From an uncultured Chloroflexia bacterium (GTDB lineage: Bacteria; Chloroflexota; Anaerolineae; JAAYZQ01): a stretch of 64,000 nucleotides of DNA. Below the pieces are notes generated by a model. That model was not told the origin of the DNA, did no database searches, and saw only the letters and a list, made by a program, of their open reading frames with translations. The DNA lies in the NCBI GenBank assembly GCA_963700285.1, contig CAVOXA010000001.1, forward strand, positions 1,312,001 to 1,376,000, given 5' to 3'. The position numbers and the translations under genes were made by a program. Below are positions 5,711-29,802 of this stretch, one piece after another; within the stretch, counting starts at the first letter, position 1, and each line of letters opens with the position of its first letter.

Positions 5711-6456
5711 GCGCCTGTGGTTGGACGATGCGGTGATGGTATACCTTCCTCTGTTCCGCATCCCGTCCCGCTCTGCTGTGGGAGGGCCTTTGGTGCACAT
5801 CTCCAGGCTTGCCCATCATCCCTCACGAAGGGCATTGTCTATGCATGTGCTCATCTTTTCTGCCAGGACCCGCATGTGGGATTCTTCTACCGCGATACCA
5901 TGGGCACCAACGATGGATACGTGACTGCCAGGGATCTCGTGGACTTGAGCACCTCCCTCCGCAAACTCGCCCCAACCCGCCCGCGGGCTGTCGGCATCGC
6001 TCAAAGTCGCCTTGGCCAGAAAGATCTCAATCCGACCTGGGTAGGGGCGTGGAACGTAGCGCCTTACGGCCCACAAGTTGGCCAGGACCTTTAGCCTGAG
6101 GCGCATATAGTCTCGCTGTCCGGTGGAGGGTAGTTCAACTATCCTGTGCGTGTGGTGGCCAATGCGTTGCCGAAATGTTCGAAGGAGGTAAGACACAAAG
6201 CGTAGGGTGGTCTGCAGCCCAGGACTTCGCAGGGGTGAGGGTTCCACCATGGCCAGGAGAGGCACTTTCTGTCCCTGTGCCCAGAGTTGTTGAGCCATCT
6301 CAAAGGCCACAACGGCGCCCGAGCACACCCCAGCCAGGAGATAGGGGCCCTCGTGCTGCACGCGACGGATCTCATGCAGATAGCGTGCAGCCATTGCCTC
6401 GATCCAGACTCAGTAGATCCAATTCTGTATCGATAGCGTGCTAGCCTGTGTGGAAA

Positions 6457-6485
6457 TTGTCAGGCTTGCCCAAACCTTGTAAGAT
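6457..6485 (+). promoter_or_regulatory. Putative transposase promoter inside the IS left end
   Basis: TTGTCA-17 nt-TAAGAT, then AAGGAGG before ATG 6524. Confidence 0.4.
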
Positions 6486-6523
6486 TGTAAGCACCACACC
6501 GACAATCCAAGGAGGGCAAGCCC

Positions 6524-7690
6524 ATGAAGGATGATACACTGAAATTGACTGATCAGCAAGTACTTGAACAGGCGCGTGTTGGCCTTCAGAAGCATTTGGC
6601 CCTGGAGGCAAAAGGCTTCAAGTGCTCCACGGAGGATCTGTTGAATGTGCTGTTGGCCGTTGGTGCCACGGGGAATACCATCGAGTCGGTTTGCGCTGAC
6701 CTGATTGGTACCCCACACCCGGAGACCATTCGCCAGTACTTGAATGAGCAACTGACCGTGGAAGGCTTGCCTGATCTGGAGCGCAGCTTGAATGCTGCCC
6801 TGGCAGCCCAAAGCCCACTGCGCGTCTGGCGTCAGTCTCGCGATATTGCCATTGACCTGCATGACCGATCGTACTACGGTAAAACCTCGCAAGAAGAAGG
6901 CCTTTGGGTTCGGGGCAAAGCCAAGAATGGCACGACGCGGTTCTACCGTGTCGCTACGGCCTACGTCATCCTGCGAGGACTGCGCGTAACCTTGGCTCTT
7001 CGTTTCTTCTTGCCGGATGATGACATAGTCACGGTGCTGGATATCTTGCTGCGTCAGCTTGAAAAGATAGAAATCCGTGTGAAACGATTGCTTTTGGACA
7101 AAGGGTTCGCCAGCATTGCGGGCATGGAATATCTGACCGAGCGTCAGATACCAGCTCTGATTGCCTGCCCCATCCGTGGGCGGACGGGCGGTACACGCGC
7201 CTTGTGTCGTGGGAACAAGAGCTATAGCACAACGCACACCTTCCAGAGCCAGAACAAGAAACCCTTCACCGCTCAGATGGTAGTCTGCCGGGTGTTCACC
7301 ACGGCCCAGCGTACAGGGCGGATGAAGCGCCGTGCCGATTGGCTGATCTTCATCTCGATCAATCTGGACCTGTCGCCCCGCCAAGCGCGTCGACTGTACC
7401 GCAAACGGTTCGGCATTGAAACCGGTTATAGATGCGCCAACCAAGTACGGGGCTGGACCACATCCAAGAACGCTGCCTATCGATTCGTGCTCATCGGACT
7501 GAGCTTCTTTCTGCTGAACGTGTGGCTGCACTTGCGTTGGCATTACACCCAGCTTCCGCGCCGTGGCTGCCGCTTGTTAGACACCAAGCGATTCCAATTG
7601 AATCGGTTTTCCAAGTTTGTTACCCGTGCATTGGAGCAACACTATGGTTGCGTTCATGAAATCATCGCACCAGCCGCGCCTCGGCCCTAA
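6524..7690 (+). CDS. DDE transposase (ISH3 family, IS4-like fold)
   Basis: IAIDLHDRSYYG, KAKNGTTRFYRVAT, LLLDKGF, YRKRFGIETGYR (Y-R-E signature); intact 388 aa. Confidence 0.9.
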   Translation: MKDDTLKLTDQQVLEQARVGLQKHLALEAKGFKCSTEDLLNVLLAVGATGNTIESVCADLIGTPHPETIRQYLNEQLTVEGLPDLERSLNAALAAQSPLRVWRQSRDIAIDLHDRSYYGKTSQEEGLWVRGKAKNGTTRFYRVATAYVILRGLRVTLALRFFLPDDDIVTVLDILLRQLEKIEIRVKRLLLDKGFASIAGMEYLTERQIPALIACPIRGRTGGTRALCRGNKSYSTTHTFQSQNKKPFTAQMVVCRVFTTAQRTGRMKRRADWLIFISINLDLSPRQARRLYRKRFGIETGYRCANQVRGWTTSKNAAYRFVLIGLSFFLLNVWLHLRWHYTQLPRRGCRLLDTKRFQLNRFSKFVTRALEQHYGCVHEIIAPAAPRP

Positions 7691-10600
7691 TAATTTGGAT
7701 CTACTGAGACTGGATTCTGAGCCCCATCCTGGAGGCCGTAGAACGGTTGCTCAGGGCCGAGGTACTGGGCAAGATCGCCGAGATCAGTGAACACATTGCC
7801 TACATTGCCAGGGACAACAAACAGAGGAGGTCTGGAGCCGGCGAGCCGCATCGACACCAGCGGTGACCATGCTGCTGTCACAGATCCCTTCTCCCGGTCC
7901 ACGGTCGCTGCCAACTCTTCGATGGTTGGCGCCTGAAAGAGGGCGGCCAGCGGCAGCTCTACATTGAGTGTTTTGTTTATGAGGGCTAGCAGGCGTATGC
8001 CCAACAGCGAGTGCCCCCCAAGGTCGAAGAAGTTGTCATGGACGCCTACCCGCTCAACGCCCAGGACTTGGGCCCAGATACTGGCCAGTGCTTCTTCCCC
8101 TGGAGTCCGGGGGGCGGCATAAGCAGCCCCTAACTGAGAAAGACTCCCGTCGGGCTCGGGAAGCGCGTTCCGGTCGACCTTACCGCTGGGCGTGAGAGGC
8201 AGTTGCTCCAGAAACACAAAGGCCGTAGGGACCAGCGCCGCTGGTAGTTGCTGACTCAGATAGGTTCTCAATTGGCCAGCCGTCGCACGTTCTTCCCTTG
8301 AAGCGACCACATAGGCTGCGAGATAGGTCTCCCCCTGCTTCTGCTTCCGGGAGATAACCACACAGGCCTCCACGGCCGGGTGGCGGGCCAAGATGGCGGT
8401 GACCTCGCCAGGTTCTACACGCACCCCTCGGATCTTGACCTGGTCGTCGAGCCGGCCCAGGATCCTCGAGTAGTCCGTCGGGCCGATATCTGCCCCGGTC
8501 GCCCGTATAGTACAGCAGGTCTCCCTCGTCGTTATGGAATGGGTTCGGGGCGAAGCGATTCTGTTCTTCCTCGGAGGCATGGACGTAGCCCAGGGTCCGG
8601 AAGGGTGTGCGCAGCACGATACTCCCCCAGGTTCACCAATACCACACAACCGCTTTCTGTCTGTGAGAACCAATGCCTGGGTCTGTGGCATCGGCCAGCC
8701 TGCAGGTTGGACACCGGGGAGAGGCTCGGCTGGCACACGATAGAAACACTTGACCATGGTGGTCTCGGTGGGCCCATAGAGGTTGATGATTTCGCCTCCA
8801 CCAGAGAAGGTAGCCCGCCATTTGCGAACCAGCGCCTCGGTGAGCGGTTCACCCGCAAAGAACACCCAGCGCATGGCACGCAGAGAGATGCTCGCTGGAG
8901 CATGAGCCAGCCATAGTTGGGCCAGAGATGGCACCGTGTTCACAATCGTGATGCGCTCATGTTCGAGCCACTGCATGAGATTTGCGGATCAAGGGCATCC
9001 GTACCATCTGGCAGACAGAGCGTCGCGCCGCTGACCAACGGCAAGAAGACATCCCGTAGAACTGCGTCAAAGGAAAGGCCAATCAACTGCGCTGCCCGGT
9101 CTCCTGGTCCGACCGAAAAGGTGTCACGCTGCCAGGCAAGGAAATGTCCCAGGCTCTTGTGACAGCCCAATACGCCTTTGGGCACACCCGTCGTGCCAGA
9201 GGTGAAAAAGATGTAGGCCGGATCATCGGGACTCGGGTCTGGCAAAGGACCTGAATCCTGCCCCTCATCCGGCTCTGCACCCATGAACCGGCCTGTCTCT
9301 TGGTCTACCCGTAGAACAACCAGATCTGGCCCTCCAGCCTGACCACCCACCCGCCTCGTAAGCGCCACTGACGCGCAACATTGCCTTCGCAGCAGCCTCT
9401 CGCAGCATGAGCTGCTGTCGCTGGAGGGGAAGTGAGGGATCAATGGGCAAGAGCACGCAGCCACTCATGAATGTGCCGATCATGCTGGCAATCAAACCAA
9501 AGCTCCGCGAACCGAACACTGCTACCACATCCCCTGGCTGCAATCCTCTGGCTAGCAAATGTCGCGCTAGGGAATGGGCACACTCGGACAATGTGCCGTA
9601 GGTCCAGTTTCGTCCAGCTTGGATGACCGCTGGGCTGTCTGGTGCGCGATCTGCCCACGCGGCGAACATTTGCATCACCGTTTCCTGGGGCGGTTCAGCC
9701 AGAAGGGCGCGCGGATCAGGCAGCAAGGGGTGGGCTTCTGATGTCACAAGAGAGAGTGTGTTGATAGGTTTTTCAGGAGCAGAGAGGACCTGCTCGAGCA
9801 ACTGCCGGTATTGCCTCAGCATCTCGGCCATGCGCGCCTGGCTGAATAGGTCGGCATTATAGACGAAACGCAACTGAATGCTCTCGCCCTGGTCCGAGAC
9901 ATACACAGCTAAGTCGAAATTCGAACTTTGTCCCCCTGCGAGGGAGGTTGCTGATGCTGAGCCCTTGCAGAGCCAGGGGTGTGTTCCGTGCGGGGAGCAT
10001 GTTGAAGAAGACCTGAAAGAAGGGAGTACGGCCAAGTTCGCGTTCCGGCTGGAACTCCTCGAGAAGTTTTTCAAAAGGGACATCCTGATGATCATAGGCC
10101 GCCAGGGTGGTCTCGCGCACTCGGTGGAGCAGTTCGAAAAATGATGGCTGCCCGGACAGATTGTGCAGGACCAGATTGTTCAGGAAGAAGCCGATCAAAG
10201 CCTCAGTCTCGCGGGTGATTCCGGCCGGCAATGGGTGTACCGAACGAACGAGACGTCCTCCTGGCCAGTGAGGCGGTAGAGCAGCGCCTTGAACGCGGCC
10301 AGCAAGGTCATGAACAGGGTGGTGCGCTCCCGTTGGCCGAGTGTTTTGAGCGCATGGGTCGTACCCCTTCGGTATCTCCAGGGACTGCGTCCCCCCCCGA
10401 TAGGTCTGCATTGGCGGACGCTGGTGGTCAAGGGGCAGCTCCAGGTTGGGCGGAGCGCCTTCAAGCTGCTGCTTCCAGTAGCCAAGCTGTTTCTCCAATA
10501 CCTTCCCCCGAAGCTACTTCCCTGCTGCCACAGGGCATAGTCCGCGTACTGGATGGGTAGCTCGGGAAGCGGTGAAGGTTTTCCAGCGGCAGAGGCAGCG

Positions 10601-11199
10601 TACAGGTCAGATTTCGCGGCGGAGGATGCCCATTGACCAGCCGTCGGAGATGATGTGGTGGATGCTGAGGAGCAGCACATGCTCTTCATCCTGCAGCCGC
10701 CACAAGGCGGCTCGCAGAAGTGGACCCTGGGCCAGGTCGAAGGGCTGCCGGGCACCCTCCTCAACCAGCCGCTGGACTTTATCCTGCCGCTTGCTCTCGG
10801 GGCAGCTCTCGTAGATCGACCACCGGCAGGCTCAAGGCCAGGGCTGGGAGATCTTTTGCACTGGCCGGCCATCCATGGCGAAGAAGGTGGTTCGCAAAGC
10901 CTCGTGGCGCCGTACTGACCTCGTTAAGGCTCTGCTTCAGCGCTGCTACGTTCAGCGGTCCCAAAATCTGATAGGCTCTGGACATAATGCGGACGGGACT
11001 GCCAGGCTCCAACTGGTCGAGGAACCATAACCGCTCCTGGCCAAAGGACAGCGGTATCTCGTCGAGATCGTGTCTCCGGGGCCTCACCTGTTGCCGAGTC
11101 GGTGCTATTCCTCCTTCCCCTCGAGGAGGTAGGCAAGAAGCTCTAGATTCTCCTTACTAGTGAGTTCATTGCTATCTAGGCGCTTTTCGGTCTGGTGGG

Positions 11200-13192
11200 T
11201 CACGCATACTTCTTCCTCCGCCTTTGCTTCTCTAAACATCCTCTTGACCTCGTTGGCCGGGATGCCTTCAACCTTGTTCCAGAGTTGGGCGATTCTCTGT
11301 CTGTCCTGCTCTCTCCTCCCGGGCGATGATCGCCTCTGACAGCTCGGCAATCGTGGGCGCCTCAAATATCGTGAGCAGGGGGACCTCTACGCGCAGGGAA
11401 TCTCGCACGCGGAGGCAATCTGGGTGGCCAGCAGCGAGTGTCCTCCCAGTTCAAAGAAGCTGTCGTGGATGCCAATCTTCTCGATGCCAAGGACCTCGAC
11501 AAAGATGTCGGCCAGCACTTCCTCGAACCGGTGTGCGGAGGACCACGGAGGCCTGCGCTGGTTCGTGTCTTGCCCAATCGGGCTCGGGAAGTGACTGTCG
11601 GTCGACTTTGCCATTGGGTGTCAGCGGGAGAGCCTCGAGCATCGCAAAGGCGGCAGGGACCATATAGTCGGGCAGCTTTTCCCGGAGAAAGCCACGCAGA
11701 TCAGAGGGAATCAGGGTTGCCCCGCCCTCCGGGACGACGTAGGCCACCAGCCGCTGGTCGCCCTGTGTCTTTTCCTTGATCAGCGCAGCCGCCTGTCCCA
11801 CGTCCGGATGTTGCCGCAGGACGGCCTCAACCTCCCCGAGTTCAACGCGGAAGCCACGGATCTTCACCTGGAAGTCCTTTCGGCCTTGGTGAACAAGGTG
11901 GCGGTCGTGCGACATGCTACCCAAGTCTCCGGTGAGATAGATGCGCTGGTTTGTATCATCTGGATCGTCAAGAGACTTGGCTAGAGTCAGTTCAGGACTT
12001 CCTCCAATAGCCAGAGGAGAGGTAAGGGCTCTTCACTGCAATCTCACCAGTGTGATTGAATCCGACCTCAAGGCCAGCATCATCACGCAGCAAGACCTCC
12101 ATGTCCTGGACCGCATTGCCAACAGGCACATTGTGGCCGACGATGGGCTCGTCATTGCTGATGAAGCTCCAGCGGAAGGTCATGGTCTCTGTGGAGCCTA
12201 GGCTGTTCACCACAACACAGTGAGGGGCGAAATGCTCTCTACATAGTCCAATATCCTTGCTGCTGACCGGTTCTCCCGAAAGGTTGATCAAACGCAAGCT
12301 GGGGAAGCTCTCATTCCCGGACAGCACGCTGCAGAAGTGGCGAAAGACAGTCGGGACAAATCGGGAGATCGTAACATCCTGCCCGATGAGCCAGGCAGCC
12401 AAGTTGGCCAGGCCCTCCTCTTTGATGTCGAAAGGGTAGAGCGTTGCACCGTTGAGCAGTGCACCGTATGTTGCGCGCACAGAATCCACAAAGCTGCAAG
12501 AAGAGAGGAGCACGATACGGTCCTCTGTGCAGATGTGGAGTCCATTCGTGTAGTTCATGATCTCATGAAGCAGATTGCGATGGCTGTGAGCGACCCCTTT
12601 GGGCTGACCGGTTGAGCCCGAAGTATAGAGCAGAAAGGCAAGCCTATCCGGCGATATGGGTAGACCCGGAGAGTCTGTTGATGTGCTGCCATCGAGCTCA
12701 TCTACATCCTGAATTTGGTGCACGCTCTCAGCCAGTATCCTGGCCAAACCCACATTCCGCCTGTTAGTCAGGATGAGGGGTTGCCTGCGAATCCCGAAGC
12801 GAATAGCTGATCCTGGCTTGGGGATAGGCGGGATCCAGCGGGACGTACATCTTCCCAGCCTTGAGTGCCCCCAAAATAGTCGCAATCAGCGGTGCCCCCT
12901 GCTCAAGAAGTACAGCGACGGGCATCTCACGGTCGCCAAGCTGCCGGAGGATGCCATGTGCCACTCGGTTGGCAGCTCTGTCCAACTCGTCGTAGGTGAG
13001 CTCCTGGCTCGATGTCTTGACCGCGAGTTTCTGGCCATACTCGACCGCCAGCTTTTCGAACCGGTCAGGGATCGATTGCTCGATTTCGTCTCTTGCGAAG
13101 GCGATGAACTCACCGCTGGGATGGAACCACTTTCCTTGAGTTTTCCCCTGGCTTTGCGTAGTGCCAAAGGGTAGTCGGGCAGCTTCACTCAT
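11200..13192 (-). CDS. NRPS-5: stand-alone A-T starter protein (frameshifted)
   Basis: [25 protein letters not shown]-terminus, [42 protein letters not shown]. No C domain. Stop position inferred by assuming one homopolymer indel. Confidence 0.85.
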
Positions 13193-13410: not shown

Positions 13411-13415
13411 CATCT

Positions 13416-16400
13416 TTAACCATTTGACAGAACGTGGTCGATACGCGCTCGCAGCTTTGCTGCCAAGGCTTGCATGTGGGTTTCTTCTATTGGGACATCC
13501 AGGCCGACAATGGTCGCATGGTTGCCCGGGAACTCGTGTACCTCTGCTCCAAGAAGGGCCAGTTTGCACCAATCCAACTGAGAATTCTCGTCGATTCTGA
13601 GCGAGTCCTCGGTGAGGAAAAGGTCCAGCCTCCCATGATACGGCTGTGGCCTGTAGCGGACAAGGGCCAATCTATTGGCGATTACCTTGAGCTTCAACCG
13701 TACATAGTCCACCTGTCCGCTCGATGGTTTGGATAGAATCTGGCGCGCGTGCTTGCCAAAGCGTGGCAGCAAGCGTTCCAGTACTGACCAGGCAAGATCC
13801 AGGTACGCGCCGATGCCTGGACCCCGCTGCCCCGCGGGTTCGACCATAGCTAGGAAGGGTACCTGCTGCCCTTGAGCTTGAAGCTGCTGGGCCATCTCAA
13901 AGGCTACAACCGCGCCAGCGCATACCCCACCCAAAAGGTATGGCCCCTCGGGCTTGACTTCACGTAATTGCTCCAGATAATAGGCAGCCAAGGCTTCAAT
14001 CCGGACCGGGTTCGCCATCCCGTCCTGGAGACCATAAAACGGTTGATCGGGGCCAAGCTGGCGGGATAGGATGCCCAGGTCAGCGAACACATTGCCCAGA
14101 TTACCAGGCAGGAAGAATAGGGGCACCCTGGAGCCGGTGCTTCTGATCGCGATCAAAGAGGTCGAGATCACTGACTGTTGCTTCCCTCCCTCGCCGAGGT
14201 GACCTGCCTGCAGTGCGATGGTGGGCGCCTGGAACAGGGTGGTCAGTGGAAGGGATTCCCCAAATTCCTTTCTTATCTGAGCAAACAAGCGCACGCCTAA
14301 CAGCGAGTGTCCGCCAACGTCAAAGAAGCTGTCGTGGACGCCAACCCGGTCCATGCCAAGGATCTGGGTCCAGATGCCGGCCAGTTTCTCTTCCGCAGGT
14401 GTCCGGGGGGCGACATAGGCAGCTTCCAACTCCGACCGGACCCGGTCAGGCGCAGGCAGCGCACGGCGGTCCAGTTTTCGGTTTGGCGTCAGAGGCAGGG
14501 CGTCGAGTGCGACAAAGGCCGAAGGGACCATGTAGGCAGGCAGCCTTGCGCTCAAGTGACCGCGGAGGTCAGCGCCTGCCGGCGCCGGCTCCTGCGCAGG
14601 GACGACGTAGGCGACCAACCGTATCTGTCCGGGCTGGTCTTCCCGGGCCAGGACAACGGCTTCCTGGATGTCATCGTGCTGGCTCAAGACCGCCTCAATT
14701 TCGCCCAGCTCAATGCGAAAGCCGCGGATCTTGACCTGGTGGTCGTTGCGGCCGGCAAACTCGACGGTACCGTCGGGCAGGTAGCGGCCCAGATCGCCAG
14801 TCTTGTAGAGACGGTCGTACTCGAGATTGGTGAATGGGCTAGTGAGAAATCGCTCTCGGGTCAGCGGCTCATCGCCCAGGTATCCGCGGGCCAGGTGAGG
14901 GCTGCGGATGTGAATCTCGCCCAATTCGCCGACTCCGGCCAATTTCCGCTCGCCATTCAGTACCAGCAACTGCGCGTCAGGCATGCCGGAACCGAGGGGA
15001 TAGACGGCCTTGGCCCTATCCCTTTGGGCATTGGGGGGGATGGTGTAATAGGCTACGGCGCGTTGGGTTTCGGTGGAACCGTACGAATTGATGCAGGTGA
15101 CGTTAGGAGCGAGGCTTGTGAGCCGCTGTACCTCGACCTGGGTCAGTTTGTCGCCGACAAAGAAGGCATAGCGCAAAAATGGCAGGCGACGCTCTGGGCC
15201 GGCTGTTTCGGTGAGGATCTGGCTCATTGCAGGGGTAAGATGGACGAAAGAGATCTTCTCCCGAGCCATCCAGTCAGCCAGCCCGCCCGGGGTGCCGATG
15301 GTGTCGTCATCGGGGCTACAGACGGTAGCTCCGATCCAGAGGGGGGTAAAGATGTCTCGCTGCAGGGGGTCATGGGACAGGCCGGAGAGCATGCTAAAGT
15401 GGTCCGCTGGCGATAGGTCAAAGGTTTCTTGCTGCCACGGCATAAAGTGGGTAAGGGGTCCATGGCGGCCGAGGATGGCCTTGGGCATGCCAGTCGAGCC
15501 AGAAGTGAAAGCTACATAGGCCAGGTCATCTGGTCCAACGGTCAGGGCGGGATCGTCGGTGGGGTGGGAGCCGAAGGCATGGTGGGACTGGGCTTCAGCC
15601 TGGCTGGGAAGAGTAAGCCTGCAGCAGAGGGGGGAGGCGGCCAGGAATGCCTCGAGTGGCTCTGGCACGTCCCCAGTGGCTTTGGTCTGGATCCAGCCTC
15701 GAGGTCCTACAGTGCGGAGATAGTCGGCCAGGCGGGCGGGCGGGTAGGCGGGGTCGAGGAGGAGGAAAGCTGCCCCCGCCTTGAGCACGCCTAGGATGGC
15801 CCACACCAGCGCCGCACTGCGATGGCCGAAGATGGCCACGATGTCCTGGGGCTGGATGCCATTGGCCCGCAGGTAGTTGGCCAAACGGTTGCTCCAGCGG
15901 TCCAATTCCTGGTATGTCCACTGCTCATGTTCGTCGACCACGGCCATATGTTCGGGCGCCTGTCGCGCGCGCTCCGCGAACTGACGATGGATGGCTCCTT
16001 GCCACTCACCGGACAGGGGAAGCGTCGGATCGGGCAACAGCTTTTTGGCTGCCGGCGTCACCAATGAGAGACTGGAGAGCCTCTGCTCTGGGTTCTCAGC
16101 GATCTGTTCCAGCAGATGCTGGTATTGGGCCAACATCTCGGTCATGCGGTCCTGGTCAAAGAGATCGGCGTTGTAGACAAAGTCTACCCGAACATTGCCA
16201 CTTTCTTCCCAGACATAGGCGGTCAGATCAAAATTGGAGCGAATGTAGTCCAGCTCGTACCACCTAACTCTGAGCCGAGACAAAGTGAACGGAGACTCCT
16301 CACCCGGATACAGGTTGAAAAAAACCTGAAACAGTGGTGTGCGGCCAAGATCTCGTTGTGGCTGCAGCTTCTCCAGCAATCCTTCAAAAGGGAGATCCTG

Positions 16401-17405
16401 GTGATCATACGCCTCCATGGCAGTCTCGCGTACGCGGCGCAGCAGTTCGAGGAAGGTTGGCTGTCCTGACAGGTTTGTGCGCAGAACCAGCGAGTTGAGG
16501 AAGAAGCCAATGAGGCCCTCGACCTCGGGGCGAGTCCGGCCTGCAATGGGCGTTCCAACGACGACGTCATCCTGCCCTGTGAGGCGGAACAGCAGTGTCT
16601 TGAACGCTGCCAGCAAGGTCATAAAAAGGGTGGCACTCTCCCGGCGGCCAAGTTCCTTGAGCGCCCGGCTGAGCGTCTCAGGTATCTCCATCGATTGGCG
16701 CGCCCCCCGGTAGGTCTGTACCGGCGGACGAGGGTAATCGGAAGGCAGGTCAAGTGCGGGTGGCGCACCGTCGAGCTGCCGTCTCCAGTAATCGAGCTGT
16801 CTCGCCAGTACCTCGCCCTGAAGCCGCTCCCGCTGCCAAGCGGCATAGTCGGCATACTGAATAGGCAGATCTGGGAGTGGGGAGGGCTCTCCACGGGTAA
16901 AAGCTTCATACAGGGCTGAAAGCTCCTGATGAAGGATACCAAGCGACCATTCGTCGGAGACAATGTGGTGCATGGCCAGGATCAGTATATGCTGCTCGAC
17001 ATCCAGCCGTAGCAGGGTTGCCCTGAAGAGTGGGCCTCGAGCCAGATCGAAGGGGCACTGGACTTCTTCCTCCACCAGCCGGCGGGCCTCGGCATCCCGG
17101 TCGCTATCAGGGCTCTCATGGAGATCCACGACTGGTATGGTCAAGTCAAGGGCCGGGGTGATCACCTGCACAGGCTGTCCATCCAAGGCTGAGAAGGTGG
17201 TGCGCAGCGACTCGTGGCGCTGTACGATCTCCTGAATGCTCCTTTCCAGCGCCGTCACATTGAGCGGGCCGGCCAGGTGAAAGGCTTCAACCACATTGTA
17301 GGCGGCCTGACAAGGCTCCAACTGGTCCAGGAACCACATTCGCTCTTGTGCAAAGGATGTCGGAAGTATAAAGGCCCTTTGTTCCATCGATGGGTTCTCA
17401 GACAT
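13416..17405 (-). CDS. NRPS-4: C-A-T-TE termination module, intact
   Basis: [76 protein letters not shown]...PGNHA. Confidence 0.93.
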   Translation of the reverse strand: MSENPSMEQRAFILPTSFAQERMWFLDQLEPCQAAYNVVEAFHLAGPLNVTALERSIQEIVQRHESLRTTFSALDGQPVQVITPALDLTIPVVDLHESPDSDRDAEARRLVEEEVQCPFDLARGPLFRATLLRLDVEQHILILAMHHIVSDEWSLGILHQELSALYEAFTRGEPSPLPDLPIQYADYAAWQRERLQGEVLARQLDYWRRQLDGAPPALDLPSDYPRPPVQTYRGARQSMEIPETLSRALKELGRRESATLFMTLLAAFKTLLFRLTGQDDVVVGTPIAGRTRPEVEGLIGFFLNSLVLRTNLSGQPTFLELLRRVRETAMEAYDHQDLPFEGLLEKLQPQRDLGRTPLFQVFFNLYPGEESPFTLSRLRVRWYELDYIRSNFDLTAYVWEESGNVRVDFVYNADLFDQDRMTEMLAQYQHLLEQIAENPEQRLSSLSLVTPAAKKLLPDPTLPLSGEWQGAIHRQFAERARQAPEHMAVVDEHEQWTYQELDRWSNRLANYLRANGIQPQDIVAIFGHRSAALVWAILGVLKAGAAFLLLDPAYPPARLADYLRTVGPRGWIQTKATGDVPEPLEAFLAASPLCCRLTLPSQAEAQSHHAFGSHPTDDPALTVGPDDLAYVAFTSGSTGMPKAILGRHGPLTHFMPWQQETFDLSPADHFSMLSGLSHDPLQRDIFTPLWIGATVCSPDDDTIGTPGGLADWMAREKISFVHLTPAMSQILTETAGPERRLPFLRYAFFVGDKLTQVEVQRLTSLAPNVTCINSYGSTETQRAVAYYTIPPNAQRDRAKAVYPLGSGMPDAQLLVLNGERKLAGVGELGEIHIRSPHLARGYLGDEPLTRERFLTSPFTNLEYDRLYKTGDLGRYLPDGTVEFAGRNDHQVKIRGFRIELGEIEAVLSQHDDIQEAVVLAREDQPGQIRLVAYVVPAQEPAPAGADLRGHLSARLPAYMVPSAFVALDALPLTPNRKLDRRALPAPDRVRSELEAAYVAPRTPAEEKLAGIWTQILGMDRVGVHDSFFDVGGHSLLGVRLFAQIRKEFGESLPLTTLFQAPTIALQAGHLGEGGKQQSVISTSLIAIRSTGSRVPLFFLPGNLGNVFADLGILSRQLGPDQPFYGLQDGMANPVRIEALAAYYLEQLREVKPEGPYLLGGVCAGAVVAFEMAQQLQAQGQQVPFLAMVEPAGQRGPGIGAYLDLAWSVLERLLPRFGKHARQILSKPSSGQVDYVRLKLKVIANRLALVRYRPQPYHGRLDLFLTEDSLRIDENSQLDWCKLALLGAEVHEFPGNHATIVGLDVPIEETHMQALAAKLRARIDHVLSNG

Positions 17406-20400
17406 TGCTATCCGTATCGTCGAGTATCTTGAGCTCATCTGAAGAAAGCACCCTCACATTCTGCGCCCTGCGAGGGCCTGCCGAGATTGCCGGTCCCTCG
17501 TGTTGTGAGTCTTTTGCTTTCAGCTCCCTGACCGCCTGGGCAAGGCCCGCAATCGTCGGGGTTTCGAACATGCTGCGCACAGCGAGCTCTACATGCAAGG
17601 CGGCGCGCACGCGAGAGATGACTTGGGTCGCCAGGAGAGAGTGCCCACCCAAGTCAAAAAAGTTGTCAGAGACGCCCGGCTTCTGTACGCCAAGCACCTC
17701 GCTCCAGATATTGGCCAACGCCTCCTCATCTGGTGTCCGGGGGGCAACGTACTCATGGCCCAGTAGCTCCCGGGACCACTCGGGCTGAGGCAGCGCCCGG
17801 CGATCGATTTTTCCGGTTGTCGTTTGCGGAAGGGATTCCAGAGTCACAATGGCCGATGGCACCATGTACTCGGGGAGTCGAGCGCGCAGGAACCGCCGCA
17901 GATCGCTCATCGACGGAGATAGCGCGTTGTATGGAACTACGTAGGCCACCAGCCGTGTGCCACCCAATCCGGGAGTATCCTCCTGAGGTACCACGACTGC
18001 TTCCTTCACGGCCTCATGCTGCATCAAGACTGATTCAATCTCACCCAGCTCGACCCGGAAGCCACGAAGTTTGACTTGGTGGTCCCGGCGACCCAGGAAC
18101 TCAATGTTGCCATCGGCTAGGAAACGTACCAAGTCCCCGGTGCGATACATTCGGGCCCCTGGTTCTTGGCTAAAAGGACAGGGGACAAAACGTTCGGCCG
18201 TCAGACTAGGCTGGTTGAGATAGCCCCGAGCCAGACCCATACCCGCGATGCACAGCTCGCCGCGCACTCCGATGGGCACTGGAGCCAGGCGTTCGTCCAG
18301 TACGTAGGCCTGGGCATTGCTGATGGGGCGTCCAATCGGTATCTCACGACCTGTTGCCACGAGTTCTGCCGTATTGTCCAGCGCGCAGCTCGTGCTATTG
18401 ATCGTTGTTTCTGTTGGACCATAGCCATTCAGTAGCCACACGCGATCTCCGACACGCGCATACCAAGAAGCCAGTCGCTTCGGAAGAGCCCTCTCCCCAC
18501 CGAAATTGATGAGCCTGATCGTCTCCGGAAACTCCAGATCAAGCTCATCCATCGCGTCGACCAAAGCGTGCCACACAGCTGTTGGCGGATCGAGGGCGGT
18601 GACCTGCTGATCATGACATACCTGCAGGATCATGGATGCCGAGGCGAGGATCTCGTCAGGAGGTAAAACCAGGGTGGCCCCACTGAGCAGACTGGTAAAG
18701 ACCTCGTGCGCGGCTGAGTCAAAACTGATGGAGGCTACCTGCAGCAGCCTTTCGCCAGGGCCTCGCCCAAGTTCAGTGCATGCGGCCAGGGTATAGTTTA
18801 CAAGGGCCTTGTGGGTGATCTGTACGCCTTTGGGCTGTCCCGTCGACCCTGAAGTGTAGACGACATACGCCAGGTTATCGGGGCTGGCCCTATTGACTGG
18901 AGCCTGGCTGTTCTCTGTGGCGATACTCTCCCACTCGCTATCCAGTTGAATTAGCTCTACCGAAGGCTCAGGCAGACTATCGAACAGCCCGCCTGAGGTC
19001 AGAAGTAGACCTACTCCCGCAGCTTTCAGCACCAAGGTCAGCCGGTCAGTGGGTAGGCAGGGTCTAGGGGCACATAGCCTCCCCCCGCTTTGAGGACGCC
19101 CAGGATGGCCACTACCACATCGAGCGAGCGCTCCATGCAGATCCCGACAAGAACCTCCGGCCCAACACCCAGGTCGAGCAGGCGGTGCGCGAGCTGATTG
19201 GCGCGTAGCTCCAGTTCCCCATAGGTCAATGCCTGATCGCCAAAGACTACGGCCGGAGCACCTGGGGTCCGTTCCGCCTGGACGTCGAACAGCTGATGCG
19301 CGCATAGGCCTGCGGCATGATCTGCCTGCGTTTGATTCCACTCTACCAGTATTAGCCGCAGTTCTGGCTCTGTCAGCAATGACAGCCTGGAGATAGGCTG
19401 CTGCGGATTGGCCACAACGCATTCTAGCAGGGTTTGAAAGTGACCCAGCATGCGTTCGATCGTTGCATGCTCGAACAGATCAAGGGAATAGTTCACTACG
19501 CACCGAAGCTGGTCGGCTTCCTGCAGGATATCCAGGGACAGGTCAAACATGGCCGAGCTATACTCGATGCTCAGGCGCGATATGTCCAGCCCGTGTAACG
19601 CCAACACCTCAGGCTCGCGGGCCAGAAGCTGAAACATCACGCGGAACAATGGGTTGCTTCCCGGGGTACGGTCTGGTCGCAGTGTCTCAACCAGTTTTTC
19701 AAATGGAAGATCTTGGTGATCGTAGGCATCCAGGCACACCTGGCGTACCCGCTCCAGAAGTTGCCAGAAACTGGGATCGCCGGCCAGATCGGTGCGCAGC
19801 ACCATGGTGTTGACAAAAAAGCCGATCAGCGCTTCGGTCTCTGGCCTGGTGCGACCAGCAATGGGGGCGGCGACGACGATGTCATCCTTTCCAGAGTAGC
19901 GCCACAGCAGTACCTTGAAAGCAGCCAGAAGCGTCATGAAAAGTGTGACCCCTGCCTGCTGGCTCAGGAGTTCAATGGCTGCGGCGAGGTCTGTGGAGAG
20001 AGCCAAAGCCTGTTCAGCCCCCCGTGCGGTCTGAACAGGCTGCGGAGGGTGGTCAACGGGCAGGGCCAGATCGCCGGGAATCCCGTCAAGCTTGTGCTTC
20101 CAGTAGGCCAGCTGGTCCCCCAGCACGTCTCCCTGCAGCCAGCCCCGTTGCCAGATGGCGTAATCCGCATACTGTAGGGAAAGCTCAGGAAGGGGGGATG
20201 GCCTCCCTGCGGTATAAGACTTGTAGAGGGCTGACAGCTCTGGAAATAGCACCATGTCGGTGGACCAGCCGTCAGAGATGATGTGGTGCAATGCCAGGAC
20301 AAAGGTGTGAGCCTCTCTGCCCAGTCGCAATAGCAGGGACCTCGCGAGAGGTCCTTGGGCCAGGTCAAAGGGTTGCTGGACATAGTCCTTGACGAGTTGC

Positions 20401-20823
20401 AGTGCTTTCGCCGCCCGCTGGCTCTCAGGCAGATCTTGGAGATTCACCACCTGCAGTTTCAGCCACAGGTCTGGATGGACGCGCTGGGTGGGCAGGCCAT
20501 CCACGGTTGGGAACGTTGTCCGCAGTACCTCATGGCGGCGAACGATCTCGTTGAGGCTTTGTTCCAGCGCCTCCACGTTGAGGGGCCCCGAAAGCCGGAA
20601 GACTTCGTAGGTGTTGTAGATCGGACTGCCTGGCTCCAACTGGTCCAGGAACCAGAGCCGCTCCTGGGCAAAGGAGAGCGGTACCTCGTCGAGTTCCGGT
20701 CTCGAGGGGAATCGCCTGCTGGGTGGGGGCATCAATGCCTTCCTCCTGGAGCAGGTAGGCTAAGAGCCGGCGCCCCTCAGCAGAGAGTTGGCTCAGGCTC
20801 GAAAGGTCTCCAGTGCCCATCAT
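17398..20823 (-). CDS. NRPS-3: docking-C-A-T module (frameshifts near 20700 and 19050)
   Basis: [54 protein letters not shown]; ATGA overlap with NRPS-2. Confidence 0.9.
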
Positions 20824-23800
20824 GAAGACTCTCTCTCCTGGAGCATTTTCCGGACCTCTTCGGCTGGCATGCTCTCGAGGTTCCTGAGTATCTGGGCCAT
20901 CTTCTCGGTCTGGCCAAGTGTGGGCTCATGAGCGATGATAGCCTGCGCAAGCCCGGCAACGGTGGGCGCTTCAAAGATGGCTCGCAGAGGAACCTCTATC
21001 GGCAATGCCTGCCGTGCGCGGGAGATGACCTGTGTAGCCAGCAGCGAGTGCCCTCCGAGCTCGAAGAAGTTGTCATGAACGCCAACCTTTTCGACGCCCA
21101 AGACCCGTACCCAGATCCCAGCCAGTACTTCTTCGACCGGTGTACGGGGGGCAACGAACAGTTCCTCCAGCTCTCGCTTGAACCAGTCCGGGGCAGGAAG
21201 CGTACTGCGCGCTACTTTGCCACTGGGCGTCAGCGGCAAAGACTCGAGCATCACATAGGCTGCAGGCAGCATATACTCGGGTAGCCTTTCCTGGAGAAAG
21301 CTACGCAGGTCGGCAGGGACAAGGACCTGGTCTTCATCTGGGACCAGGTAGGCTACCAGCCGCTGGTCCCCCTGCATCCCCTCCCTGACCACGACCACTA
21401 CCTCTTGTACGCCTGGGTGTCGCCCTAACAACGTCTCGATCTCCCCCAGCTCAACCCGGAAGCCGCGGATCTTGACCTGGTAGTCACTGCGACCCAGGAA
21501 CTCGATGTTGCCATCGGGTAGGTAGCGGGCCAGGTCTCCGGTTTTGTACAGACGCAAGCCCGGCACGTCAGCGAAGGGGCTGGGAACGAACTTGTCAGCG
21601 GTCAAGTCCGGACGATTGAGGTAGCCCCGGGCCAGGCTGTCACCGCCAATGTAGAGGTTGCCGGTAACGCCAACCGGCACAGGTTGCTAGGTTGTTGTCC
21701 AGCAGGTAGATCTGGGTGTTGGCGATGGGCTGGCCAATGGAGGGGAGCGCGGGCCAGCCGGCCGGCGAATCCTCCAAGGTGAAGCCGGTCACCACGTGGG
21801 TCTCTGTGGGACCATACTGGTTGTGGAGTGTGCAGCCCTCCAGTCCGGCAAGAGCTCCACGATTGGTGGCGTGATCTGCAACTGCTCGGCCGTCGTCACA
21901 ATCTCGCCAAGACTGCTGGGCACCGTTCGCTGGCTGGCCGCTACCTCGGCCAACTGCTGCAGGGCAATGACCGGCAGGTTCATTCTCTGCACCGACTGCT
22001 CTGGAGATGAACTCCAAGAGGCCTGCTGCGTCCCGTCGCAGATTGCTCTGTCATCAGGACCAAAGTTCCCCCCGAAGCCCAACTCCAGAACATATCCACA
22101 AAGGAGGCATCGAAACTCAGAGGCGAGAACTGCAACATCCTGGTCCGTACCTGACAGCCTCGAATTCTGGACCTGCCATCGGATCAGATTGTAGAGAGGC
22201 CGGTGGTGCATGGCCACCCCTTTGGGCACCCCGGTAGAGCCTGAGGTGTAGAGCACGTAGGCCAGATTCTCACGCTGAGACCCCGCTGATCGGGGTTCTC
22301 TTCGCTTTCCTGGGCGATGGCTTGCCAATCTGTGTCCAGGCGAATGACCTTTGCTCGGTGCTCAGGCAGCGCGTGTAGCAGTCGCTCTTGAGTCAACAGC
22401 ACCGGTACCCGGGAATCCTGCAACATGAATGCCAGCCGCTGCTGTGGAAGGGACAGATCCAGCGGCACATATGCCCCACCAGCCTTCAGAATGCCCAGCA
22501 CGCCGACTACCATATCTAGCGAACGCTCTACACAGATTCCCACCAGTGTCTCGGGCCCAACGTCGTGCTTGTGCAGATAATGCGCTAGCTGGTTGGCCCG
22601 GGCGTTGAGATCGCCATACGTCAATGATTGGCCCTCGAACAGCGCCGCCAGGGCGCCAGGGGTTCGCTCCATCTGATTCTCGAAGAGATGGTGGACACAT
22701 GGTACCTCAGAGTACCCTGCCTGCGTGCTGTTCCACTCTACAAGTAGCTGACGGCACTCGGCTCCAGTTAGGAGTGGCAACACTGAGATGGGCAGATCTG
22801 GGTCGTCTACAATCCCTTCCAGTAAGGTCTGGAGATGCCCGAGCATTCGCCTCACCGTGGCTGATTCAAACAGGTCGGTATTGTATTCTAGGGTGGCCCC
22901 GAGCTCTCCTTTCTCCTCCCTTGCGAACAGGGTCAGTTCGAACTTGGCAGTTCCACTGTCGACCTCCAGAGGCTCCAATGATAGCCCGCAGAAGTCCATG
23001 GCCTGCCCCTCGGCGGGCTCCAGGAGGAGGAACATCACTTGAAATAGTGGGGAGTGACTGAGATTCCGTTCGGGGACCAATTCCGCAACCAACCTCTCGA
23101 AGGGCAGATCCTGGTGCGCATAGCTCTCCAAGGCTACCTGCCGCACTCGGCCCAATGCCTCCCGGAAGGTGGGATTGCCCGACATGTCCGTGCGCAGTAC
23201 TAGCGTGTTCACAAAGAAGCCAATCAGCTCTTCCACCTCATTCCGATTTCGGTTGGCGACGGGAGAGCCCACCACGATGTCTTCCGCACCGGTGTAGCGA
23301 AACAACAAGACCTTGAACGCTGCCAACAAAGTCATGAACAGCGTTGCATCCTCGTGGCGGCTCAGGGCTTTGAGCCTCCGTAGCTGAGGAGCTGAAAGCA
23401 GCCGCCGGGATTCGTACGCACCTCTATGGGTCTGTCTTGCCGGTCGAGGGTGATCGGTTGGCATACCTATTGAAGCCGGAGTGCCAGCCAGTTTCTCCTT
23501 CCAATAGGAAAGCTGGTCCTCCAGGGTTTTTCCCGCCAGCCACTCTCGCTGCCATACCGCATAGTCGGCGTACTGGACTGGGAGTACTCCAAGCCGGGAC
23601 GGGGTACCGGTTCTGTACGCCTCATAGAACGAGGACAGTTCGTGGAGCATGACCCCCGTTGACCATTCGTCGCTGACAATATGGTGCATGTTCAGCAGCA
23701 GGAGGTGCTCCGTACTGCTCATTCGTATCAACCTGCCTCGGACGAGCGGGCCGGTGGCCAAGTTAAAGGGCTGCTTCGCCTCCTCGCGCAATAGCCGCCA

Positions 23801-24292
23801 TCCCTCTGCCTCCCGCTCTGTCTCTGGCAAAACCCCTAGATCCACCACTGGCAGGGCTAGGGGCATGGCAGGGGCTATGACTTGGTATGGAATTCCCTCG
23901 ACGGCAGAAAAGGTCGTGCGCAGGACCTCGTGGCGTTCGATGATCGCATTGAGACTCTGTTCCAGCACGAGCGCATCAAGCGCACCGGTCACGCGAAAGG
24001 CCGAGGGGACGTTGTAAAGAGGACTGTCTGGCTCGAACTGGTCCAGGAACCACAAACGCGCTTGCGCGAAAGACAACGGCAAGTTCCCTTGTCGAAAGGT
24101 GGGAAGCAGTGGCGCCTGGCTGGCCTCGACGTCGCGCAAGAATGCCAGGATCTCGATCTTGCGCTCGGCTAGCTCTTTTCGCAGGGCAGGCGTCAGTGCA
24201 CCCCGCGGCGCACGAAAGCCCAGTTGGTCACCTTCTGCCCACACCCTGATATTCTGGCTGCGAAGAAGCGTGAGGAACTCCAGGGCCGTCAT
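20820..24292 (-). CDS. NRPS-2: TubC-type N-terminal docking domain-C-A-T (frameshifts ~21.7-22.3 kb)
   Basis: [92 protein letters not shown]. Confidence 0.9.
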
Positions 24293-27200
24293 AACCGTCC
24301 CTCCTCGAGTCCGCTGCCGGCATCACCGAGCGGGCCTGGCTGGCCTTGAGTCACCCACTGGATGGTCTCGATCGACTCAGCGAGGCTGGCAACCGTCGCT
24401 GTCTCAAAAAGGCTGCGGAGGGGCAATTCCACTTGAAAGGCCTCGCGTACACGAGATACTACCTGCGTGGCCAGCAAGGAGTGGCCCCCCAATTCGAAAA
24501 AGTCATCCTGCACGCCGATGGGTCTCAGGCCAAGAACCTCAGCCCAAATACCGGCCAGCCTTTCCTCGACAGGCGTACGCGGTGCGATGTAGGGCTCCTC
24601 CAACTCCGGGCGGCCCTGACCTGGCGCTGGCAGCCCCTGGCGGTCTATCTTGCCATTCGGTGTCAAAGGTAAGGCTCTGAGCCTCACAAATGACGAGGGA
24701 ATCATATAGTCAGGCAATTGCTGTGCCAGGAAACGGCGCAGTTGTGGCACCAGCTTGGCGGTCTGTGTTTCCTGCAATGGGGTGCTTGCAAAGCTGTGCC
24801 AGTCTTGCTCTTGAGCCTGCGAAGACTGGCAGCTTGGAAAGGCTACCCAGGGTGTCTTCATTGTCCCCTGCTGGCGCCTGCGGAACAATATGTCAAAGCA
24901 GCCTTCTGCCCCAGCGCCCGACCAGCCTATATCGACTTCATAGGGTAATTCGTTGCCCAGGCACCATAGAGACTCAGGGTCTATGCCTGTCTGGGGTAGC
25001 TCGGTCAGCCTGTCCCGCAGGGTACCTGCCTGATTGGGTGGGATCTCGCCGTGCAGCCAGGCCAGACTCTGTAGATCTGGCCCCAATCGTGCGTTGGGAA
25101 CGTGTCTAAGGCCGATCGCCTCTGGGTTCTTGTCCAAGAGCAATTGGTGCAGATCGGGCACAATCAAAGTGCTCTGATCCCAATCCAACCACTCCACCTC
25201 TACGCTGCGAGAAGCTTCGGCCTCAATGTGGAGCAGCACATCGTAGCGGAACTTGGTCTGTTCGTTTGCGTATCGGCCCCGCTGGTGCAAGATCTCGACG
25301 TGGCTGATTCGGGGCAGGCGCTGTGGGAGGGCGACGAAAAGGGCTGGGTCAAGCACCAACTGCTCCTCACGCTCCACCTGTCTCCTCACACGTTGCTGCA
25401 GCGTCTGTCGGGATACAGAAGGTGAGGCTCTATGCAGTTGCACCGAAGTGTGGAAGGTCTCCAGCAGTGGCAGGCTGCGTACGTCGCCTACAAAGACAAA
25501 GCCCCCGGGTGCGGTGGCCGCCACTGCATCGTCGAGGACACGCAAGAGGTAGCTCAGGCTGGGAAAGTACTGGACGACAGAACTCAGAAGGACAGCATCG
25601 AAGGCATGCGGCTCAATGCCCGTAAAGTCATCTGCTGGGCGATGGTCGAGAGTCAGATGAGGCAGGGACATCGCAATCCGGTCCACCTGTTCCTGTATAT
25701 AGTTCACAGCCACGGAGGAAAGGTCTGTTCCCCAGTAGTCGGTGCTTTCGGGGGCAAGCCTGAACAACAGCAGCCCTGTGCCGCAACCGATTTCAAGGAT
25801 CCGTTGGGGGCGTAGTGACTTTATTCGGGTCACTGTCTGTTCCACCCACTCGCGCACTTGTTCTGCAGGGACGGGCAGGCCGGTGTAGCTGCTGTTCCAT
25901 CCGCTGATATTGAAGGTGGGGTCTGCCTGAAGCGAGTCTTGCTCGTAGGCGTCATCGTACACGGTCTGCCAGTGGGATAGGTGGTCGGTCTGCGCAAACG
26001 GCTCCGGATCTGCCGAGTCCGCGGACTCGGCACGCTGAGTGAAATAGGCCGCCAACCGCTTGTCACCGTTGGTCTCCTCTCTGGCAATCACAACGGCCTC
26101 ACGCACCAACGGGTGCTGTGCCAGGGCGGCCTCGATTTCGCCCAGTTCGATGCGGAAGCCACGTATCTTGACCTGATGATCGGAACGGCCCAAGAATTCG
26201 ACATCGCCGTTGGGCCGCTGGCGAGCCAGGTCGCCAGTTTCGTAGAGCCGTGCCCCGCGCCGGCCGCTGAAGGGATCGGGAATGAACTTTTCCGCCGTGA
26301 GCCCGGGACGGTTGAGATAGCCCCACGACAGGCCATCCCCACCGATATAGAACTGGCCAGGTTCCCCGATAGGTACCGGCTGGAAGGAGGAGTCCAGAAT
26401 GTAGACCTGCGTGTTGGCAATGGGCTGCCCAATCGGCACGGGGCCTTCACCGGCGCGCACACGTTTCACGGTGGACCAGATTGTGGTTTCTGTGGGCCCG
26501 TACAGGTTCCACACCTCTGCGCTGCGCTGCAACAGTTGGTCGGCCAGGTTGCGGGGCAATGCTTCCCCTCCACAGAGGATCCTTAACTGGGAAGATCCCC
26601 CCCATCCTGATTCCAGCAACATGCGCCAGGTCGCGGGGGTTGCCTGCATCACGGTCGCTCCGGACGCGTCCAGCGTGTGCGCCAGCCGGCTGGGGTCAGT
26701 GCTCGTCTCTCGGCTGGCCAGTACCAGCCGGGCGCCCACGCTTAGGGGCAGGAATAGCTCCAGGGCCGCAATATCGAAGGACAGGGTAGTCACGGCCAGA
26801 AGCGTGTCCCCCTGAGCCAGGCCAGGTTTGCAGCGCATGGAATTCAAAAAGTTGACCACGGCACAGTGAGGAATCTGGACGCCTTTCGGCTGCCCCGTGG
26901 AACCAGAAGTATGGATCACGTAGGCCAAGCTCATGGGCGATGCCGCGCTCGGCAAGTTCTGGGTGCTTTGTCCAGAGACCATCTGCCAGTCTCCATCCAG
27001 GCACATTTTGTGGGCCTGATGCTTGGGCAGCGCAGAAAGGAGGCGCTGGTGAGTCAACAGTACTGGCACCTGGGCGTCCATCAGCATGAAAGCCAACCGT
27101 TCCCCAGGGAAAGCCGGATCCAGAGGTACATAGGCGCCACCCGCCTTGAGAACACCCAGCAGACCCACCATCATGTCTAGTGAGCGCTCCAGGCATACGC

Positions 27201-27441
27201 CTACCAAGACCTCTGGCCCTACGTCCAAAGTCCCAAGATAGTGAGCCAGTTGGTTGGCTCGTGCGTTCAGCTCGTGGTAGGTAAGTTGCTGGTCCTCAAA
27301 CACTACTGCCGTTGCACCCGGTGTCCGCTCCGCTTGGGCTTCGAAAAGTTGATGGATACACAGATCCCGTGGCCGGCCGGCCCTGCAAGCGTTCCGGTCC
27401 ACCGGTTGCAGAGATCCCTCTGCAAGGTGTCGTTTTCTCAA
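24289..27441 (-). CDS. NRPS-1: starter A(Gly) with embedded N-methyltransferase, plus T
   Basis: Likely TTG start after AGGAGG. A-domain code read as DILQLGLIWK. MT insert between A8 and A9 ([22 protein letters not shown]). [10 protein letters not shown]; C-terminus LEEGRL. Confidence 0.92.
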
Positions 27442-27729
27442 GGCCTGGAATCCTCCTGGCGTGCTATCTACCGTTCTCCGCCGACGCGGTCTGTAAGATG
27501 CCCGGCAAGAAAGCGCTGCCCTGGTGCGTGGTATCACCGGCTCCCGTCTCATGTCAGTAGTCCTGCCACGGAGTGACCGCCGACTGCTGGCTCAGGTAGG
27601 ATAGCGATGGACTGTGCATCCCATTCCTGGCTGGTGCCAGCTCGCTGATATTCACCTGTGACAGGCTGAACTAGTCCATGGCCCGGATCTGTCTGCGCTC
27701 CTCTAGGCGATGGACGCATAAAGTCCCCT

Positions 27730-28779: not shown

Positions 28780-28816
28780 GGGTTCCCATGCCTCCCTTGA
28801 CGAGGTCCTGTCCCGT

Positions 28817-29461: not shown

Positions 29462-29709
29462 GCCGTTTCCCTTTCTTCTGCTGCTTGATGCCGTAGAGAG
29501 GATCGGAAGCATTGACCTGGGCGCCGAATGATTCCGTAGACCCGCGCCAAAAAGACCCCTCATGGAGGCCAACCGGCCAGTCCCTGGGGCAACCTAGCCT
29601 CTTCTATAATACCTTTGGAACCCCCAAAAGGATACGGCCGGGATTGGATCTCGTTGACAAAGAGAGGAGGGCTTTCTCCAGGGCTTCTCTCCGATACCCG
29701 ATCCCGCAG

Positions 29710-29748
29710 CGCAAGAGGCCAGCCCGTACTCAGGGCTGGCCTCTTGCG
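29710..29748. terminator. 16-bp perfect hairpin downstream of the large secreted protein (terminator or mRNA stabiliser)
   Basis: CGCAAGAGGCCAGCCC-GTACTCA-GGGCTGGCCTCTTGCG; no clear U-tract. Confidence 0.55.
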
Positions 29749-29802
29749 GCGTTCCGAGGTCTTTAATCAGAGGTCAAGGCTGGATCATCTAGATAGACCG
29801 GG

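Follow-up and report, generated by a model that had tools for sequence, protein, structure and literature searches.

A Cys/Glu/His thioesterase clade at the ends of short NRPS and PKS lines in Anaerolineae, with a possible role in surface-glycan decoration

A 64,000-nucleotide stretch of contig CAVOXA010000001.1 (assembly GCA_963700285.1, positions 1,312,001 to 1,376,000) from an uncultured member of the Anaerolineae, called the window below, encodes two lines of nonribosomal peptide synthetases (NRPSs) that each end in a thioesterase (TE). Both domains, TE1 of NRPS-4 and TE2 of NRPS-6, belong to a clade with a Cys/Glu/His triad that, judged by its sequences, is a variant of the type I TE with Glu as the acid. 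We propose that members of this clade are donor-tolerant transacylases that decorate a neighbouring surface glycan with small acyl or peptide groups, a reading to which we give about an even chance (roughly 0.5) and whose acceptor is suggested by gene context. Cys thioesterases as such are already known, and Cys TEs with Asp as the acid have been described in the literature. Literature searches, in which subscription journals were poorly covered and supplements excluded, found neither a description of a Cys/Glu/His clade nor one of a TE that decorates a Wzy polymer, and the excerpts of PMC10510592 and PMC11748557 describe neither. Papers are cited by PubMed Central accession and from excerpts throughout. 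Coordinates are those of the window, and features lie on its minus strand unless stated otherwise; G numbers denote genomes (G000 is the window's own, G263 a congener), L numbers loci and C numbers contigs (C1 carries the window).

Residues, fold and phylogeny of the thioesterases

TE1 (13419..14180; protein P0001) lies C-terminal to the PP-binding domain of NRPS-4 and scores 66 bits against Pfam Thioesterase (PF00975), for which the cut-off is 26.4. An AlphaFold2 model computed from an alignment of 46 sequences (mean predicted local distance difference test score 93) folds as an alpha/beta hydrolase and has a two-helix lid at residues 123-175. In its secondary structure, Cys87 (13920-13922) sits at the nucleophile elbow that joins strand 82-86 to helix 88-102, Glu114 (13839-13841) directly follows strand 109-113 at Cys+27, here called position I, and His221 (13518-13520) follows strand 212-217. 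In the model these are the places usual in a type I TE fold (the elbow, after beta6 and after beta8), in agreement with a preliminary description of this DNA that had read a triad from the motifs GVCAG, MVEP and PGNH in TE1 (the first in full GGVCAG) and GVCSG, MVEP and PGSH in TE2, all of which are seen in the translations. No GxSxG occurs anywhere in the TE1 domain, and another Ser as its nucleophile was rejected on this ground.

The family was assembled from three protein searches and comprises the 189 proteins that reach 275 bits or more against a profile made from the initial hits, a definition that is partly circular; dereplication at 75% identity left 131 members for the residue counts. 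Cys is kept in 131/131, within the motif V/I-C-S/A/L/F, and His in 128/131; the acid is Glu in 130/131 and Asp in one, so that the Cys nucleophile and the Glu at the usual Asp place, both claimed earlier for the two window domains, extend to the family as a whole. Of 190 TE domains outside it, 143 have Asp as the acid and 25 have Glu. Cys alone was rejected as the distinguishing rarity, since 83 of the 184 nearest outside TEs also have it, against 92 with Ser. Further residues specific to the family are Pro25, Asn27, Asn30, Asp34, Arg136, Arg140, Lys163, Lys165 and Trp171, the last of which is Leu in TE1. A second acid, at 192 after strand 185-190, is found in 101/131 members and missing in 30/131 and in TE2; the corresponding post-beta7 place is acidic in 94 of 188 outside TEs. 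Because this second acid is missing in TE2 and common outside the family, Glu114 is the better candidate for the catalytic acid, and the position II acid may contribute alongside it.

In a FastTree phylogeny of 132 rows, from which 40 fragments were excluded, the family and two lower-scoring rows with the PGN motif split from the other 33 rows with a Shimodaira-Hasegawa support of 97. TE1 and TE2 share one 15-member subclade without being sisters: TE1 is paired with a single TE of the congener G263, and TE2 groups with two others. By this sequence comparison they are paralogues that predate the split from G263. An intact copy of TE2 on contig C13 shows 53% identity with TE1 across 249 residues; with this divergence and the tree, a recent tandem duplication was rejected. 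Named carriers are mainly Anaerolineae, with one record each from Chloroflexia, Desulfobacterales and Latescibacterota, and occurrence is patchy, with strong matches in 4/401 genomes of the class and 5/401 of a second class sample, and a family TE in 5/23 genomes of the order and 2/401 of a phylum sample. One family member (L034:5153-6094) is a stand-alone TE of 314 residues that matches Pfam Thioesterase only and has no NRPS near it.

TE1's best match by both profile (E 6.5e-45) and Foldseek is the TE of AB3403 from Acinetobacter baumannii (PDB 4ZXH/4ZXI). Like NRPS-4, AB3403 is a single termination module of condensation (C), adenylation (A), carrier (T) and TE domains, and its GWCFG, MID and PGDH line up with TE1's three motifs. 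It differs in having Asp where TE1 has Glu, in lacking the PGNLGNVFxDL loop and in an identity of only 24%; the AB3403 TE has been called uncharacterised, and it keeps the acid at position I (PMC11298585). Fold scores of TE1 in VIA-align were tied at Z 23-24 among the TEs of Pks13, AB3403, fatty acid synthase (FAS), the Skyxy-type 7CRN and NocB, and ESM Atlas matches were generic thioesterase clusters only.

Varied donors and a polysaccharide neighbourhood

One kind of TE follows very different donors. By motif-based labels the dereplicated architectures are C-A-T 41, A-T 30, polyketide synthase (PKS) 12, C-T 4, unclassified 10 and fragments 40, the PKS modules being of the ketosynthase-acyltransferase-(ketoreductase)-acyl carrier protein, or KS-AT-(KR)-ACP, type. 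The PKS TEs form one subclade, and those of C-A-T and A-T modules are interleaved, with 17 changes over 71 rows against a shuffled mean of 23 and minimum of 17. The terminal A pockets carry 72 codes among 101, a set that was not dereplicated and counts the window's own twice. Read by known signatures, these pockets presumably include Thr, beta-Ala, Gly, Leu, Val, Ala, Gln, Asp and basic residues, and many presumably accept non-amino acids, having no amino-binding Asp. Complete stand-alone A-T-TE proteins (by Pfam) also exist, and no condensation domain was found beside A-T-TE in the 9-80 kb examined for G141, G860, G401, G402, L035 and L137. Such a protein would have to pass its acyl group on, since hydrolysis would burn ATP only to regenerate the substrate. 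With 860-960 residues, these compact members would make the role testable with one protein.

Two side observations concern these lines. In L116:3842-6892 and L028:13290-16339, both polysaccharide loci, an A-T-sulfotransferase protein stands directly before a KS-AT-ACP-TE. Beside the NRPS-TE of G401, G402, L116 and G860 (L154:315-1793, L116:10808-12070 and L171:6089-7267) stands a protein of ~400 residues; its copies resemble one another at the N-terminus, match nothing in Pfam or NCBIfam and twice occur with an ATP-grasp-like gene.

The window suggests where the acyl groups may go. A co-oriented polysaccharide cluster of ~25 kb (27730..52718, by Pfam) ends 178 bp before NRPS-1 and encodes a sugar transferase, a Wzz-like protein, Wzx, Wzy, a sulfotransferase, three family 4 glycosyltransferases (GT4), a deacetylase, a GHL10 protein, FemAB/GNAT proteins, a hexapeptide acyltransferase and a Gfo/Idh/MocA dehydrogenase that resembles UDP-GlcNAc 3-dehydrogenase with a score below the cut-off. 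Four cluster genes (in 29803-34456 and 41311-45229) match known families weakly or not at all, and the product of 29803-31701 is 88% identical in G263. Across family loci the recurring neighbours of the TE are GT4, FemAB/GNAT, Wzy and Wzx. Full polysaccharide clusters lie next to A-T-sulfotransferase plus PKS-TE or next to A-T-TE in G056, G401, G402 and G860; in G263 an NRPS fragment follows directly on the syntenic cluster where C15 ends, four family TEs lie at an end of C6, and we infer that these ends are joined.

A polysaccharide marker (any of eight profiles whose seeds were taken from the window and from loci of the family) was found within 10 kb in 10/18 family loci, compared with 17/73 loci with other TEs and 0/10 same-class controls; the Fisher p values of 0.019 and 0.004 are overstated through kinship and the family-seeded markers. 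Random 20-kb windows of the window's genome contained a marker in 17% of cases. The 18 loci remain from 37 after removal of 8 near-copies and of 11 shorter than 7 kb (one of these 11 with a marker), and the 73 controls remain after 15 short loci and one family fragment were dropped. A genome contig scan with an unspecific pattern gave 80 loci, 4 of them with the family and the rest used as controls, and a metagenome pattern gave a family TE in 25 of 38 loci. The window and G263 were scored as misses under the 10-kb rule, which distance or a contig break explains; in G522, GT4 and Wzy-like genes lie farther off, and the close GT4 orthologue sits on another contig.

A constant TE behind such different donors, together with the enrichment of polysaccharide genes nearby, fits a shared external acceptor. 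That both TEs offload onto the same or a similar external nucleophile had been suggested in the preliminary description, and the varied donors, the stand-alone A-T-TE proteins and the polysaccharide genes support it indirectly. In the mechanism that we envisage, the acyl group would pass from the carrier to Cys87 by transthioesterification, Glu114 orienting His221; a nucleotide-sugar or a lipid-linked repeat unit, possibly held by Trp171 and the conserved basic lid residues Arg136, Arg140, Lys163 and Lys165, would then attack the acyl-Cys in the cytoplasm through an amine or a hydroxyl; and the decorated unit would be exported by Wzx/Wzy. Amines and weak nucleophiles attack the thioester of a Cys acyl-enzyme more readily than they do a Ser ester. 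Cys suits transfer, since its replacement by Ser makes the MacB and BulbE TEs hydrolases (PMC13288461, PMC11536411).

The Pks13 TE, which moves a mycolyl group to trehalose (PMC10147368; the excerpt of PMC13721041 on this TE mentions release only), is likewise a terminal TE and an intermolecular sugar acyltransferase, and it aligns with TE1 at Z 24.3 (root-mean-square deviation 3.8, 232 residues aligned). It differs in its Ser nucleophile, its long-chain lipid donor and its place in a mycolate condensase; with 19% identity and the NRPS context of the family, these TEs are not Pks13 orthologues. Literature searches on peptidylamido glycans, on NRPSs with O-antigen amino-sugar acylation and on TEs that transfer intermolecularly to sugars found nothing. 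Surface glycans do receive acyl or peptidyl groups supplied by adenylation and carrier proteins in the Dlt system, in Vibrio cholerae O1 (RfbK-O) and through the NRPS of the C. difficile flagellar glycan, and the transfer enzymes known from these systems are others. We know of no carrier-dependent glycan acylation system with a fused Cys TE.

Several observations weigh against glycan decoration. All characterised Cys TEs in the literature consulted are intramolecular cyclases, and the Pks13 fold score is tied with those of the FAS, AB3403 and NocB TEs. No marker lies within 10 kb in 8/18 family loci, and no glycan genes were found in the DNA examined of G141, L033, L034, L035 and L137. NRPS genes with other TEs also stand in polysaccharide loci (the 17/73 above), so that adjacency may reflect a common insertion hot spot, and the enrichment was obtained with markers drawn from the window and the family and among kin that are not independent. 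Only 2/12 genomes carrying a close GT4 orthologue have a family TE, and an NRPS was found in none of the eight TE-less loci of this type examined, which makes the TE lines look like optional cassettes. PaaK-like adenylating enzymes (below curated cut-offs) in 5/8 TE-less related polysaccharide loci count instead in favour of decoration. Finally, no DegT-type aminotransferase gene, as might be expected for an amino-sugar acceptor, was found in the window; such a gene is present in G401, G402 and G860, and an amino-sugar acceptor at the window locus is possible. As a separate observation, L052, L078, L083, L094 and L099, from Acidobacteria and Nostoc, are loci of NRPSs with other TEs among polysaccharide genes.

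More tentatively, and with somewhat less than even confidence, we speculate that the mini NRPS/PKS cassettes of Anaerolineae ending in this one TE clade form a general machine for grafting groups onto Wzx/Wzy polysaccharides, in which coats are varied by module swapping and the grafted groups are amino acids, peptides, and sulfated or polyketide-extended acyl groups. If so, many Anaerolineae NRPS/PKS clusters would be reassigned from antibiotic-type (PMC11748557) to cell-surface building. A Glu-bearing TE clade that takes dozens of donors to an outside acceptor would bring a new kind of release chemistry and could be a candidate catalyst for ligation.

Free release, other acceptors and strained rings

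It is also conceivable, if fairly unlikely, that the TE sets small molecules free, whether as products of hydrolysis or of aminolysis by small amines, as macrocycles or as head-to-head dimers, and that its island is merely shared with polysaccharide genes. A-T-TE enzymes that dimerise their own substrate occur in fungi and Ralstonia, and both the 8/18 family loci without a nearby marker and the 17/73 control loci with one count in favour of this explanation. So do the Cys TEs of MacB, PmxB and BulbE, cyclases with the same acid position (PMC13288461, PMC11792885): the pairs Cys89/Asp116 in MacB (PMC13288461) and Cys961/Asp988 in BulbE (PMC11536411) again place the acid at Cys+27, and Cys TEs, about 2% of TEs, are ring-closing where characterised (PMC13288461). 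These enzymes share with the family a Cys-His-acid triad and a thioester acyl-enzyme that favours aminolysis; they differ, in a comparison by published residues rather than by sequence, in having Asp and in being intramolecular macrocyclases of long peptides. Against free release, most lines seen here comprise between one and four modules, a stand-alone A-T-TE that hydrolysed its acyl group would only regenerate the substrate, and one conserved pocket serving 72 codes plus PKS products fits a common acceptor better than ring closure.

Donor tolerance would serve equally well a transacylase whose acceptor is not a polysaccharide. Candidates would be lipids, thiols or polyamines, precursors of the cell wall, and surface proteins sorted by exosortase, acylated on their glycan or on their side chains. 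Some gene contexts point this way: an exosortase (TIGR02602, above cut-off) and an EpsI-like gene, identified by profile match at 60454..62057, stand 8.5 kb upstream of the window's polysaccharide cluster, L033 and G522 have Ig-domain or PMT-like genes at their flanks, several A-T-TE loci have a phosphopantetheinyl transferase gene as sole neighbour, and a tandem pair of Mur-ligase genes separates TE-ended NRPS lines in G263 (L025:10380-13181), with a gene for a pyridoxal phosphate enzyme further up. We nevertheless consider such an acceptor unlikely, since the neighbours that recur are GT4, FemAB/GNAT, Wzy and Wzx and no other acceptor gene does.

The formation of strained beta-lactones or beta-lactams as in ObiF and SulM, which the preliminary description had offered as the alternative to a shared nucleophile, is highly improbable: the Cys nucleophile, the presumed Thr-type code of 7/101 terminal pockets, the presumed Ser type of the C13 line 1 pocket and the acid after strand 185-190 in 101/131 members speak for it, and against it stand an acid fixed at Cys+27, a post-beta7 acid that TE2 and 30/131 members do without and that many outside TEs possess, and donors that for the most part have no beta-nucleophile and include PKS modules. 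ObiF1 and SulM resemble the family in their Cys nucleophile, their type I TE fold and their place at the end of short lines. Their catalytic Asp, however, follows strand beta7 at position II (PMC11298585, PMC6668435), ObiF1 has Gly1173 at position I (PMC6668435) where the family is acidic, and the Gln-Cys-Asn motif of SulM (PMC11298585) is absent from the family. The terminal pockets of the window are, as predicted from their codes, aminoadipate-reductase-like rather than beta-hydroxy or beta-amino. Neither TE was among 43 sequence matches (E up to 10) or the 50 structural matches listed, and both may nonetheless be related. Because A-T, C-T, C-A-T and PKS modules with 72 codes precede the TE, strained-ring formation cannot be the general job of the clade.

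The NRPS lines, the split TE2 and an alternative haplotype

Line 1 (NRPS-1 to NRPS-4) would make a four-residue peptide and line 2 (NRPS-5 and NRPS-6) a two-unit acyl group; domains were assigned by Pfam. NRPS-1 (24289..27552) is an A-methyltransferase-T starter whose pocket, read by eye, we take to be of Gly type. NRPS-2 (20820..24292), a TubC_N-C-A-T protein in several frames, presumably has a Pro-like pocket, read across frame breaks, and NRPS-3 (17398..20735) is C-A-T in two frames. NRPS-4 (13416..17438), C-A-T-TE in a single open frame, has the A pocket code DPRHFVSRAK, and its A region resembles aminoadipate reductase (TIGR03443, E 9e-207, below the whole-protein cut-off and the best of the single-A models), which by analogy with Lys2 chemistry suggests that it activates a side-chain carboxyl. 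NRPS-5 (11200..13192, ends approximate, with frame breaks) is an A-T starter without the amino-binding Asp, and NRPS-6 (5816..11200, start approximate) is a C-A-T-TE protein, recognised also by comparison, that is split by an insertion and has frame breaks.

The insertion severs TE2. Its N-terminal piece with the PGNVGNVF loop (7707..7866, found by sequence comparison) is separated from the C-terminal piece (5816..6410; Cys at 6323-6325, Glu at 6242-6244 and His at 5921-5923 by translation) by a 1296-bp insertion sequence on the plus strand (6411..7706), which has a DDE_Tnp_1 transposase reading frame (6524-7690), inverted ends and a direct repeat of 5 bp and lies within the 'NPV.IEA' motif. 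The earlier claim of paralogous TEs at the ends of both lines is upheld as to kinship, in the 53% identity and the common subclade, but not as to two whole domains in the window. The intact TE2 on C13 of the same assembly has an empty insertion site, and contigs from two public runs of two studies (X2 and X4) join 6405 to 7707 without the element. As the piece beyond the insertion is without the first strands and the PGN loop, line 2 is probably inactive in the window haplotype. Single-base indels break many NRPS modules in the window; those in NRPS-6 are absent from the X2 contigs where covered and differ from C13, so that they are probably assembly errors, and true frameshifts in NRPS-6 were rejected on this comparison.

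C13 20000-31918 is an alternative haplotype of window 1-14800. Its line 2 is 97-98% identical, and its line 1 is one TubC_N-C-A-T-TE module where the window has four modules; the switch lies within TE1, whose last 41 residues are identical. A line 1 swapped while line 2 is kept matches the expectation for a variable surface trait, and a chimeric assembly is possible as the source of the difference. The A domain of the C13 NRPS-5 has an internal deletion. The insertion sequence has a 99.9% identical copy on C9 (309375-310670), where the flanks are inverted rather than direct repeats, and a 70% identical relative on C13 (5421-6670). About 15 kb past the window end on C1, a second small NRPS pair (L158:14705-18940), A-T then C-T, has a hexapeptide-repeat acyltransferase domain in the C-T protein in place of a TE, and a GNAT gene adjoins it.

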